This document shows, piece by piece, positions 37,150 to 57,139 of a stretch of 57,139 nt of DNA; the first letter of the stretch is position 1, and each line of letters opens with the position of its first letter. This DNA comes from Promethearchaeota archaeon. Its GTDB lineage: Archaea; Asgardarchaeota; Lokiarchaeia; Sigyniarchaeales; SOKP01. The DNA is taken from positions 1-57,139 of the forward strand of contig JABCSY010000012.1 in the NCBI GenBank assembly GCA_018238625.1, written 5' to 3'. A model generated the notes under the pieces. That model searched no databases. It saw only the letters and a list, made by a program, of their open reading frames with translations, and had not been told where the DNA came from. The position numbers and the translations under genes were made by a program.

Positions 37150-37281
37150 TGGTGCTTCTGCCGGGATTCGAACCCGGTTAATGATACGGATCGACATGTG
37201 CCGTATTGTCACCAGGGTGAAAGCCTAGCATGCGGAGCCCTTTCCTTTTCGGAAAGTTTGGCCGAACTACACTACAGAAGC
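37150..37281 (-). tRNA. tRNA-Glu(TTC) with two introns (37234-37257 D-loop; 37178-37207 variable/T junction); CCA encoded
   Basis: GCTTCTG/CAGAAGC stem, CT-TTC-AC loop, BHB central helices GGCC/GGCT and GGTG/CATT. Confidence 0.93.
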
Positions 37282-44588: not shown

Positions 44589-44690
44589 TGGACCTGACGG
44601 GAATTGAACCCGTGACCTCTTGAGTGCAAATCTCGCATCAAGCTAATTGCTAGTTATGTGTCAAGCGATCTGCTACTGATCTACAGGCCC
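44589..44690 (-). tRNA. tRNA-Ala(TGC) with a 30-nt intron at 32/33 (44630-44659)
   Basis: GGGCCTG/CAGGTCC stem with G3-U70, BHB CTTG/CGAG; lies downstream of the 16S. Confidence 0.92.
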
Positions 44691-44761: not shown

Positions 44762-46253
<1,492 letters not shown>

Positions 46254-52327: not shown

Positions 52328-52437
52328 GCTTCTGTAGTGTAGTCCGGTCAAACTTACTGATTATTTAACACAGAAAAAAGGATTAAGCATGCGAGGCTCT
52401 CACCCTCGTGACCCGGGTTCAAATCCCGGCAGAAGCA
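52328..52437 (+). tRNA. tRNA-Glu(CTC) with a D-loop intron (52352-52386)
   Basis: GCTTCTG/CAGAAGC stem, CT-CTC-AC loop, BHB GGTC/GATT. Confidence 0.93.
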
Positions 52438-54420: not shown

Positions 54421-56454
54421 TCTTGAGTTTATAAGTTATTCTTTTTTTAAAATTTTTTCTTAAATTTATTCAATATTTATTTCCGACAAATCTGTTTAGT
54501 TCTCGGAAATACTTTTCTAAGAGCTGCATGCCAGCCATTTTAATTTTTCAACTTATTCACGTGCTAAACGAAGATGTGGTTTATTTTGCTCCTATGGTCA
54601 CCAACTATTACTTGTTGATATAAGAAATTGTTAAGATATCAAAACATTTTACCGCAATATTTAAATACTTCTGTACTCCAATATTATATAGATGGTGTTT
54701 TTAGTAAAAAAGGACGTTAAAGGTAATATATACCTTTATCTTGAAGAAAGAGCCTGGATTAACGGAAAATCTAAAAGGCTATGGCAAAAATATCTTGGTT
54801 CAGAAGATAAGATAAAAGAATACTTTAAACCCCTGACAAGACCTGAATATACCATTACAACTCTCGACTTTGGGCTCCCAATTGCTCTAATGAACCTCAT
54901 AAAAAAGCTCGATCTCATCAATATAATCAACGATTACTCGAATAAACGAATTCAAGGGTTAACATTAGGACATTATATCGTGTTAGCAGCTATAAACCGT
55001 TGCGTGAAACCAACTTCTAAGGCAAAAATTCGCGGGTGGTTTGAGCATACCGCACTTTTAGAGGTATTTCCCCCCATTGAGACGTATTTAGATTCAATGG
55101 CATATACGAACCATTTCAAGTATTTAACTCCTGAAATTATTGATAAGATAGAAGCCCGCATTCACGAAAAATTAGTCTCGAAATTCGGTGTGGAAATGAA
55201 GACTTTATTCTACGACCCTACCAATTTTTTCACTTATATCAATCCTAAGCCCGGCATGGAACTTCCTAACTACGGACGTTCCAAGGAGGGGCGATTTACA
55301 CTTAACCTTGTTGGGTTAACCCTTTTCTGTACTCATGATGGCGGACTTCCTATAATGCACGAGGTATACCCCGGAAATGTTCAGGACGCCAAGCTTTTTC
55401 GGGACGAATTAAAGCGCATTTTTAAACGACTAAAGGTTATTGGTGTAAAGAACGAAGAAATATGTTTGGTCTTTGATAAGGGAAATATCTCTCCAAAAGC
55501 ATTTGATCAAATTAATGATTCGGGCATTCGTTTTATTTGTTCAATCCGTCCCAGCACGCAAAAAGACCTTCTTAAGTTGCCTGCAAGTAAATTTACCCTT
55601 GAAATGCTCCCTAACGGAAAGAAAGTCGGAGTGCTTGAATTTGAATACAAAAAATACGGGGAAAATCACAGACTTTTTGCCGTATACAATCCGAATCAGA
55701 GAGAGCGACAGGAAAAAAATCTTAAAAAAAAGCTTGAAAAACGACTCTTAGAAGTTAATGAGTGGTTTAAGGACAGGCTAAACGTGAATAAATGGAGAAA
55801 ACCAGAAAATGTTGAGAAAAAAATACGGGACATCATTAAAACTAAAGCATATTTTAATTGGATCAAATATTCCGTCTCGGGAACGTACGCTAAAGTTAAC
55901 TATTCAATTAAAATTGATAAAAATGCCTTAAACGCTCACTTGGACACCCTTGGTAAGACATTCATTCTCTCTAACCACCCGACCATGGAGCCTCTTGAAG
56001 TCACATGGTTATACAGGCAACAATACACCGTGGAACGCGCATTTGCCTATATTAAATCGCCTACAATGCTCTCAATTAGACCCCTGAACTGTCATTCGGA
56101 TGAGAGCATTCGAGGTCATTCTTTCACGTGCGTTCTCGGTCTTTTACTCCTAACACTATTAACCCGAGAGGTCCAACGTGAATATAAAGAAATGAGTCTT
56201 CCTAAAATTGTAGAAACGCTCTCAGAAATTGAGTTAGCCATAATAAAATATGAGGGTACTAGAAAAAGTATTAAAAAAATGGTTGAAATCTCAAAAGAAG
56301 CTCTGAATTTGTCTAAATTCTTAAAACTTGATGAATATCTCTAATATAAATTTTTAATGGTCACTAACTTTTTTATTACGCCCCAAGAGGAGGTCATCTT
56401 TTAAAGTTACAGAGCGCAAAAGTTTTGAATGAATGATAACTTATAAACTCAAGA
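54421..56454 (+). mobile_element. IS1634-family insertion sequence
   Basis: 19-bp perfect terminal inverted repeats TCTTGAGTTTATAAGTTAT (54421-54439) and ATAACTTATAAACTCAAGA (56436-56454) flank the transposase. Confidence 0.88.
54692..56344 (+). CDS. IS1634-family DDE transposase
   Basis: YDPTNFF, GRSKEGR, YPGNVQD, VFDKG, YRQQYTVERAF..IK. Confidence 0.92.
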   Translation: MVFLVKKDVKGNIYLYLEERAWINGKSKRLWQKYLGSEDKIKEYFKPLTRPEYTITTLDFGLPIALMNLIKKLDLINIINDYSNKRIQGLTLGHYIVLAAINRCVKPTSKAKIRGWFEHTALLEVFPPIETYLDSMAYTNHFKYLTPEIIDKIEARIHEKLVSKFGVEMKTLFYDPTNFFTYINPKPGMELPNYGRSKEGRFTLNLVGLTLFCTHDGGLPIMHEVYPGNVQDAKLFRDELKRIFKRLKVIGVKNEEICLVFDKGNISPKAFDQINDSGIRFICSIRPSTQKDLLKLPASKFTLEMLPNGKKVGVLEFEYKKYGENHRLFAVYNPNQRERQEKNLKKKLEKRLLEVNEWFKDRLNVNKWRKPENVEKKIRDIIKTKAYFNWIKYSVSGTYAKVNYSIKIDKNALNAHLDTLGKTFILSNHPTMEPLEVTWLYRQQYTVERAFAYIKSPTMLSIRPLNCHSDESIRGHSFTCVLGLLLLTLLTREVQREYKEMSLPKIVETLSEIELAIIKYEGTRKSIKKMVEISKEALNLSKFLKLDEYL

Positions 56455-56512
56455 TAATATAAAAATAAAATGAAAATCAAGAATATAAAGATAAAAAAAA
56501 GGCAAAAAAAAT

Positions 56513-56806
56513 ATGAAAATTTCAGTGGAGGATTCAAGAACTGGCAAATTAATTAAGCTGGATGTTAAAGAACATCATGTGGTTGAAAGGATAGTAGATT
56601 AATTTGGAGATTGCCTCCATTTTCAATAAATAATCATCAAACACATGGGTATTATTAGTGCTGAACAGCGTACATACACGTTAGTCCTTAAAGGTCAGGA
56701 ATTGCCTACCAATATAACGGTTAAAGATGCTATTCACAAATTTGGACTAAAAGAAGAGGATAAGCTAGCCTTATGGGCGAGAGTTGTTGGAGGCACTTCT
56801 TTTTAA
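56513..56806 (+). CDS. Ubiquitin-like protein interrupted by a 30-nt putative BHB intron (exons 56513-56599 and 56630-56806)
   Basis: Joined product MKISVEDSRTGKLIKLDVKEHHVVERIVDIIIKHMGI...WARVVGG-TSF (87 aa) aligns with ubiquitin; the insert holds two in-frame TAA codons. Confidence 0.8.
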
Positions 56807-56924: not shown

Positions 56925-57139
56925 TTAATCTTCGATGATGATTATGTCATCATCTTCATCTTCTTTTTCATCCTCTTTAACACCATATTGTTTTTTAAGA
57001 TCTTCCATTGAATTTTGCTTGAAAAACTCAGCTGCCTTCAAACACGTGTCATAATTAAGAGGATCATCGGGATTTGGATTTTCTACTAATCTTTCTAAGG
57101 CTTTGGTCGTTGTTTTCAAGTCAGAAAGTCTAGACCATT
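56925..57139 (-). CDS. C-terminal part of a ubiquitin-conjugating enzyme E2 (truncated by the window edge)
   Basis: WSRLSDLKTTTKALERLVENPNPDDPLN matches the UBC pattern WSP...LL.DPNPDDPL; acidic tail. Confidence 0.8.
   Translation of the reverse strand, partial: WSRLSDLKTTTKALERLVENPNPDDPLNYDTCLKAAEFFKQNSMEDLKKQYGVKEDEKEDEDDDIIIIED

Follow-up and report, generated by a model that had tools for sequence, protein, structure and literature searches.

A Lokiarchaeial ubiquitin-like gene split by a 30-nt insert: a candidate tRNA-type intron in an Asgard messenger RNA

We analysed a stretch of 57,139 nucleotides (nt) from a Promethearchaeota archaeon (contig JABCSY010000012.1 of assembly GCA_018238625.1, forward strand), referred to here as the window, which is contig C22 of a 4.29-Mb, 201-contig, 97.9%-complete genome. 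An initial annotation of this DNA had placed it in an Asgard archaeon, an origin supported by the source names on its homologues (Lokiarchaeia and Promethearchaeota), and had proposed that a ubiquitin-like gene near the end of the window is split by a tRNA-type, bulge-helix-bulge (BHB) intron. The gene and its parts are as follows.

56513-56806, + strand: ubiquitin-like gene, whole, split by a 30-nt insert with two in-frame TAA codons
56513-56599, + strand: exon 1, 29 codons (M1-D29), encoding the first two strands and the N-terminal half of helix 1
56600-56629, + strand: insert, candidate BHB intron, with TAA at both ends and a hairpin (56605-56609/56615-56619, 5-nt loop)
56630-56806, + strand: exon 2, from I30 to GG, then three more residues and a TAA stop (56804-56806)

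The frame that begins at the ATG at 56513 runs for 29 codons into a TAA at 56600-56602 and meets a second in-frame TAA at 56627-56629. From 56630 the frame of exon 1 resumes and stays open, and when TAA is read through as X the product ends in RVVGG plus three residues. The split gene, its two internal stops and the resumption of the frame all lie where the initial annotation had put them. Excision of 56600-56629 in silico, by coordinates, gave an 87-residue product. Alignment with the orthologues (65-80% identity) showed no gap at the junction in any of the 17, which bears out the claim that removal of exactly 30 nt restores the register; in four of these orthologues, which belong to a second family, a one-residue gap falls about ten residues beyond the junction. 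Exon 1 aligns with the orthologues from residue 1, and MAFFT set the ten insert codons apart as a single clean block between D29 and I30. Of 37 residues that do not vary among 16 orthologues, the joined product retains 36; only S44 is changed, to T. These results demonstrate that the insertion lies at an exact codon boundary. The initial annotation had further predicted that open reading frame (ORF) callers would miss such a gene, and this is what we found: they return only pieces of 29 and 53 residues, the second (56645-56806) starting from M35, and the public protein collection holds only the 53-residue second half (P0002).

We examined the encoded protein by structure prediction. AlphaFold2, run on the orthologue alignment (i.e., predicting an intact orthologue and not the joined product), returned a beta-grasp fold with a predicted local distance difference test (pLDDT) score of 87.9, in which the elements follow the order strand-strand-helix-strand-strand-helix-strand and the first helix comprises residues 24-35. 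The top 50 Foldseek matches to this model were ubiquitin and one SUMO2 (E values 1e-7 to 1e-6, template modelling (TM) scores 0.7-0.8, 24-31% identity, and 13% for SUMO2), the best of them being ubiquitin at E values of about 1e-7, TM scores of 0.72-0.81 and 26-31% identity. No match to the Pfam ubiquitin family (PF00240) was listed for the readthrough protein or the orthologue, and a profile of 16 orthologues weakly matched ubiquitin and NEDD8 in the PDB (E values 0.03-0.65 for single domains, down to 4e-10 for polyubiquitin). The C-terminal GG is invariant in 17 of 17 sequences and is followed in the window by the three further residues. Judged from the predicted model, the gene product is a ubiquitin-fold protein with a C-terminal GG. 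Because the insert site falls in the middle of the helix at 24-35, translation through the insert would be expected to break the fold.

This last point bears on whether the interrupted frame could be expressed by recoding, with the ribosome either bypassing the insert, in the manner of phage T4 gene 60, or reading both TAA codons as sense and adding ten residues. The arrangement here, with a stop right after the last exon 1 codon and then a hairpin, resembles the take-off site of T4 gene 60. However, bypass is opposed by the lack of matching take-off and landing codons: the codon before the gap is GAT, the gap closes with TAA and ATA comes next, and there is no GAT or GAC at the end. Readthrough is opposed by the gene's own terminator, which is also TAA, and by the ten residues that it would place mid-helix. 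We therefore regard recoding as highly improbable.

We next asked whether the 30 nt are present in DNA sequenced elsewhere, and compared the window with contigs from four DNA runs of four studies. A contig from run X2 spans 56538-56783 and is identical to the window, insert included. A contig from run X5, which belongs to another study, spans 56454-56759 with no gap and two differences, neither of them in the insert: T to C at 56650 (GGT to GGC) and G to A at 56680 (ACG to ACA), both third-position and synonymous. The insert-bearing alleles thus differ at 2 of 306 nt, and an insert-free form was not seen among the contigs of the four runs. Run X1, in which this DNA is best represented, has no contig over 56510-56795, which proves nothing. 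An assembly or sequencing artefact, in which the 30 nt would not exist in the organism's DNA, could draw on this gap in X1 and on the fragmentation of the assembly. Against it stand the independent contigs of two other sequencing studies, which give the insert DNA-level support as one identical copy and one whose two differences lie elsewhere, and a cluster member with the same truncated ORF that comes from further sources. An artefact is accordingly the least probable of the explanations we considered, to the point of being nearly negligible, and even recoding and artefact taken together amount to a very slim chance. The insert, its register and its reality as DNA are established.

The insert is specific to this lineage. 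The family occurs in 75 of the 154 genomes of the order, and comparison of orthologues across the order for the presence or absence of the insert, as the initial annotation had proposed, covered every intact copy (n = 91). All 91 lack the insert, which is present in 1 of 92 copies, the window's own. Behind these counts stand 99 family rows: the 91 intact copies, the window copy, two matches within long frames, a decayed copy that contains four stops, and four partial matches. Of the partial matches, two end at a contig edge, one is a clean C-terminal fragment, and the last is decayed and contains a stop. The two matches in long frames (G131:C248:32-277 and G154:C59:11015-11260) lie inside frames of 431 and 549 residues and may be domain fusions. 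On the scale of the phylum, the family is found in 75 of 400 genomes, all inside the one order, and its distribution is patchy and often multi-copy. The description of the locus as a eukaryote-like ubiquitin gene is therefore overstated for a one-order family without a Pfam ubiquitin match. The joined product and P0004, an intact protein closely related to it, differ at 6 of 84 residues, which argues that the insert was gained recently.

A search for the origin of the insert found no match elsewhere in the genome at up to three mismatches, and short-word blastn returned nothing longer than 17 nt. In public DNA, in collections that may omit records close to the window, the 21-nt core of the insert gave two metagenome-contig and two genome-contig matches, all in unrelated sequence (Clostridium and Bacteroidota metagenome-assembled genomes and two unrelated metagenome contigs). 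We also considered a miniature mobile element or transposon footprint and rejected it, since there is no second genomic copy and neither a target duplication nor terminal repeats were seen; no DNA-level mobile element accounts for the insert.

We then examined whether the insert and its flanks form a BHB motif. For this we fixed the cuts from the orthologue alignment (after 56599 and after 56629) and checked the pairs afterwards, which gave the following elements.

56594-56597, + strand: 5' strand of the central helix (exon), pairing with 56624-56627 at 3 of 4 positions (G.U, U-A, A x A, G-C)
56598-56600, + strand: proposed 5' bulge, cut after its second base, 56599/56600, which is the 5' insert boundary
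56624-56627 and 56628-56630, + strand: 3' strand of the central helix and proposed 3' bulge, cut after 56629, which is the 3' boundary
56589-56593/56631-56635, + strand: outer exon-exon helix (h), 4 of 5 pairs, 2 of them contiguous
56601-56602/56622-56623, then 56605-56609/56615-56619, + strand: inner helix (h'), 2 pairs, a 2x2 mismatch, 5 pairs and a 5-nt loop

The two 3-nt bulges and their cuts coincide exactly with the ends of the insert, and the position of the cut inside the bulge is presumably that of the canonical tRNA intron at 37/38. The central helix has one mismatch, A56596 x A56625, and with 3 of 4 pairs falls into the 'relaxed' class by the rule of a preprint on Asgard tRNA introns (10.64898/2026.10.13.758758); both h and h' contain at least two contiguous pairs, where a BHB intron needs this of at least one. 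The hairpin is centred 2.5 nt away from the centre of the insert, as the stagger of a BHB demands, and the inner and outer helices share one register while the central helix is offset from it by three, which is not expected of a plain hairpin insert. We estimated how often such a fit arises by chance from 200,000 random genome positions with 30-nt spacing. A central helix of at least 3 pairs together with an outer helix of at least 4 of 5 occurred at 1.4% of positions, and adding the inner helix reduced this to 0.21%; a simpler rule (central helix at least 3, both flanking helices with at least 2 contiguous pairs) gave 0.42%. The exons contribute to this fit as well: in exon-tail duplex energy the window ranks second of 92 copies, and when the insert is placed into the exons of each copy, the window's fold energy ranks first of 92. 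All the pairings that the initial annotation listed for its relaxed BHB are present, while the minimum-energy fold of the region is a hairpin and not the BHB. This fold (56570-56660) is a long imperfect hairpin of -20.3 kcal/mol (z -2.2, with 4 of 200 shuffles as good) in which the outer helix extends through 56584-56586/56637-56639 and 56575-56581/56642-56648. The ensemble cost of the BHB is +6.2 kcal/mol, which falls inside the span of the four tRNA introns of the window (+1.2 to +7.9 kcal/mol). Overall, the BHB fit is too good for a random insertion, yet weaker than in the genome's tRNA introns.

The genome encodes the machinery that such an intron would require. Two EndA paralogues are indicated by PF01974 matches above the cut-off on C58 (7294-7518 region) and C7 (25627-25875 region), and an RtcB is present (556.8 bits). 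In the literature, Asgard archaea are described as having an (alpha-beta)2 EndA with an L1 loop, the loop being linked to cleavage of relaxed motifs (PMC5829648). The preprint, which cautions that the 'relaxed' BHB class is a permissive one, describes Asgard tRNA genes as having gained introns repeatedly and recently, often on terminal branches, and leaves the route of arrival open (10.64898/2026.10.13.758758). The tRNA genes of this genome are indeed heavily interrupted, and the introns in the window sit at non-canonical places in three genes.

37150-37281, - strand: tRNA-Glu(UUC), with two introns, 24 nt in the D-loop and 30 nt before the T-arm
52328-52437, + strand: tRNA-Glu(CUC), with a 35-nt D-loop intron; identity by Rfam alignment
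44589-44690, - strand: tRNA-Ala, with a 30-nt intron at about 32/33

The tRNA-Ala gene follows a complete 16S rRNA gene (44763-46252, - strand) that has no intron-sized insertions, in the usual archaeal 16S-tRNA-Ala order. ARAGORN listed only 28 tRNAs in the whole genome and mislabelled two of the window's intron-bearing genes as tRNA-Val and tRNA-Stop; of its 17 intron calls, most lie off any BHB and are apparently misplaced, leaving 5 usable. We considered its two 'tRNA-Stop (tta)' calls as suppressor tRNAs and rejected both as misplaced introns, the one in the window being the tRNA-Glu(CUC) gene above.

Taken together, the exact register, the motif at both boundaries and the machinery suggest that the insert is a recently gained, BHB-type (tRNA-type) intron that is spliced from the ubiquitin-like messenger RNA (mRNA), a reading that we consider evenly balanced between right and wrong. 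That no second copy of the ubiquitin-like family was found in this 97.9%-complete genome also counts in favour of this reading. The fuller scenario, in which a BHB intron very recently colonised the coding region, EndA and RtcB splice the mRNA, and intron-free sister alleles persist, we hold with slightly less confidence than that. From the pairings above we infer that the primary transcript would fold in vivo such that exon 1 and exon 2 pair as the outer helix, the central helix joins four exon bases to the 3' end of the insert, and the insert hairpin forms the inner helix, with two 3-nt bulges remaining. A heteromeric endonuclease made of the two EndA paralogues would then cut after the second base of each bulge, and RtcB would join the exons and probably circularise the 30-mer. 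Translation of the joined mRNA would read D29-I30 in mid-helix 1 and yield an 84-residue ubiquitin fold with the GG end and the 3-residue tail.

An alternative that accounts for many of the same observations is that the locus is a recent pseudogene, i.e., that a 30-nt piece of DNA was inserted in helix 1, that its two stops inactivate the gene, and that the exons are intact only through recency. In a variant of this explanation the insert may itself have been a BHB intron, misplaced into another RNA and later copied back. The fit to a BHB would be partial or no longer sufficient for cleavage. A number of results, set out in this and the following three paragraphs, weigh against splicing, and several of them favour a pseudogene. 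The insert is found in a single copy of 92. The central helix is mismatched, while it is 4/4 in all seven tRNA introns that we placed (four in the window and three elsewhere), although these introns were placed by best motif and the comparison is to that extent circular. The initial annotation had cited mismatched central helices in the window's tRNA introns, with lengths of 24-41 nt, as support; the placed ones measure 24, 30, 30 and 35 nt and are all 4/4, and this remark fails. A synonymous change in codon 28, GTA to GTT, would complete the central helix and is not present, while 6 of 17 orthologues have ATT at that codon, with which the helix would be 4/4. The enforced BHB has an energy of -13.8 kcal/mol, 6.5 kcal/mol worse than the minimum-energy plain hairpin. 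There is also a competing canonical motif of 42 nt with cuts at 56587 and 56629 (i.e., with the same 3' site), at a cost of +9.7 kcal/mol, whose removal would take out four conserved residues. The chance estimates themselves used criteria that were set after seeing the case, and a central helix of at least 3 pairs arises at a fixed boundary in 16.7% of positions when taken alone. Finally, 7 of the 91 other copies would satisfy the same motif rule if given the insert, which indicates that the exon side is not unique.

Evidence from the rest of the genome points the same way. A search for RNA evidence found none, the 17 sequencing runs listed including no RNA run. The initial annotation had suggested scanning the genome for BHB motifs that bridge in-frame stops; our scan, for canonical motifs between open frames, found no excess over slid controls (1641 vs 1618 and 1594, with a 4/4 central helix, h of at least 2, h' of at least 3, introns of 13-110 nt, frames of at least 50 codons on each side and the 3' partner slid by 1 or 2), though such a background could conceal a few true cases. 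The cbf5 gene of this genome is uninterrupted. Sequence decay is uninformative about the state of the gene: the divergence between insert-bearing alleles is so small that an absence of decay says little, and in comparison with each of the 13 orthologues of equal length the synonymous sites have reached saturation (nonsynonymous divergence (dN) 0.11-0.23), which makes selection after the insertion unmeasurable and the comparison uninformative about the time since insertion.

The family is also dispensable and prone to decay. About half of the order's genomes are without the gene, and three of the 99 family rows are damaged or incomplete away from contig edges.

G131:C217:22280-22528 (L109): full-length copy with four stops, about 50% identity
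G113:C73:18134-18235 (L107): decayed fragment with a stop and a frameshift
G126:C58:20275-20406 (L105): clean 43-residue C-terminal fragment with no N-terminal part within about 1 kb

We looked for further interrupted genes among homologues that, like the 53-residue ORF of the window, begin exactly at M35. Among the 120 exon 2 ORF homologues listed, 8 do so, the window's own included, and more lie inside clusters; truncated members of the P0040 cluster lie on contigs of up to 14 kb. On the tree these forms fall in scattered positions (8 changes for 8 rows), two of them equal the C-termini of intact proteins (P0066 with P0093, and P0015 with P0124), and real fragments exist, so we rejected them as a class of interrupted genes; they are probably for the most part contig-edge or fragment calls. 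A search for N-terminal fragments of 30-45 residues found none, and longer cluster members (110 residues), considered as in-frame introns, proved to be N-terminal start miscalls. Viral contigs held no relative. P0038 (74 residues, on a contig of 108,841 nt) is normal from about residue 24 and starts with MLAT instead; it is either a truncated copy or interrupted elsewhere.

The neighbourhood of the gene gives further grounds for suspecting a pseudogene.

54692-56344, + strand: DDE transposase, 550 residues (PF01609, E value 1.8e-10), directly upstream of the ubiquitin-like gene
56925-57139, - strand: E2-like gene (weak UQ_con match), represented by its C-terminal part; convergent with the ubiquitin-like gene and truncated where the contig ends

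At orthologous loci the ubiquitin-like gene stands tail to tail with a UQ_con ubiquitin-conjugating (E2) gene (38.1 bits), which follows a ThiF-type activating (E1) gene (167.6 bits). The E2 piece in the window has 76% identity to residues 121-171 of the orthologous E2, and neither the cognate E1 nor the first 120 residues of the E2 were found in the assembly. With these missing and a transposase upstream, the system may be breaking up. The transposase is essentially single-copy in the assembly, with one 189-nt match at 86% on C77. The genes upstream of the ubiquitin-like gene differ among orthologous loci, and the transposase stands in their place here; contigs from runs X5 and X4 no longer match the window at positions upstream of about 56454, which indicates that the transposase is not 5' of the gene in every strain. 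At the orthologous locus in G025, the product of the upstream gene (L004:1857-2819, - strand) is a fusion of a P-loop NTPase and a TIR domain (PF13676, E value 3e-15). This TIR neighbour, together with the patchy, multi-copy E1-E2-ubiquitin-like cluster, hints at a defence-island context rather than housekeeping ubiquitylation.

Other results speak against a pseudogene. For a random insertion, the expected rate of a BHB fit at both boundaries is only 0.2-0.4%, no other copy of the insert was found in the genome, and the hallmarks of a mobile element (target duplication, terminal repeats) were not seen. Both differences in the second strain are synonymous. In addition, the 53-residue protein P0122, found on contigs of up to 23.5 kb, starts at M35 and shares the derived T44, keeps the conserved residues intact, and differs at two variable positions and in the tail. 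By this sequence comparison, P0122 may represent a sister allele that has diverged while carrying the same interruption, which hints that the interrupted form has lasted for some time. On balance, we regard a recent pseudogene as a serious contender that nonetheless falls somewhat short of an even chance.

If the candidate intron is spliced, its nearest known counterpart is the intron of crenarchaeal cbf5. Excerpts of earlier work describe the cbf5 mRNA intron as often having a relaxed motif that a heterotetrameric EndA cuts outside the tRNA context (PMC2738675), and report experimental evidence for its splicing (PMC2738675, PMC7714728). As in cbf5 of Desulfurococcales and Sulfolobales, the insert described here would be a short tRNA-type intron in a coding frame, in a genome with a hetero-oligomeric EndA, with a relaxed motif and a patchy pattern of gain and loss (PMC2738675, as excerpted). 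In contrast to cbf5, the host gene is ubiquitin-like rather than a pseudouridine synthase and belongs to the Asgard phylum, the insert occurs in 1 of 92 copies whereas the cbf5 intron is common to whole orders, and splicing is proposed here from the DNA sequence whereas that of cbf5 was demonstrated by experiment. In Haloferax volcanii, HVO_1309 has a 46-nt BHB intron in its 5' untranslated region (UTR) for which circular RNA was found and which is cut in vitro (PMC7714728). The Haloferax case is likewise an mRNA BHB intron, but lies in the untranslated leader and leaves the frame uninterrupted. The excerpted text of that report gives cbf5 of Crenarchaeota as the only other mRNA case (PMC7714728).

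The insert also resembles the non-canonical tRNA introns of Asgard archaea (10.64898/2026.10.13.758758) in its size (24-35 nt for the tRNA introns of this window) and in having the inner hairpin beside the 5' bulge. It differs from them in its mRNA host, in a central helix of 3/4 vs 4/4 in seven, and in having no similarity elsewhere in the genome. A formal parallel drawn by the initial annotation is with HAC1 and XBP1. In these systems IRE1 cuts at mRNA stem-loops, and ligation (by RtcB in animals) alters the translated product. The parallel is limited by the fact that IRE1 is unrelated to EndA and that IRE1-dependent splicing is stress-regulated and changes the C-terminus rather than removing stops. 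We found no Asgard mRNA BHB intron in the literature searched. As far as our literature searches show, the candidate intron, if spliced, would thus be the first such case in Asgard archaea and a new instance of the crenarchaeal cbf5 kind.

If the proposed splicing is true, the archaeal lineage nearest to eukaryotes would have in this ubiquitin-like gene its first protein-coding gene spliced by an endonuclease, with the intron caught near its gain. The case would imply that mRNAs are open to invasion by BHB introns wherever a permissive EndA and proliferating tRNA introns occur together. With its intron-free sister alleles it would also be a natural substrate for work on how introns arrive, the question that the preprint leaves open. 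Genes of this kind would be annotated as fragments or pseudogenes, and would be systematically missed by ORF callers in intron-rich Asgard genomes.

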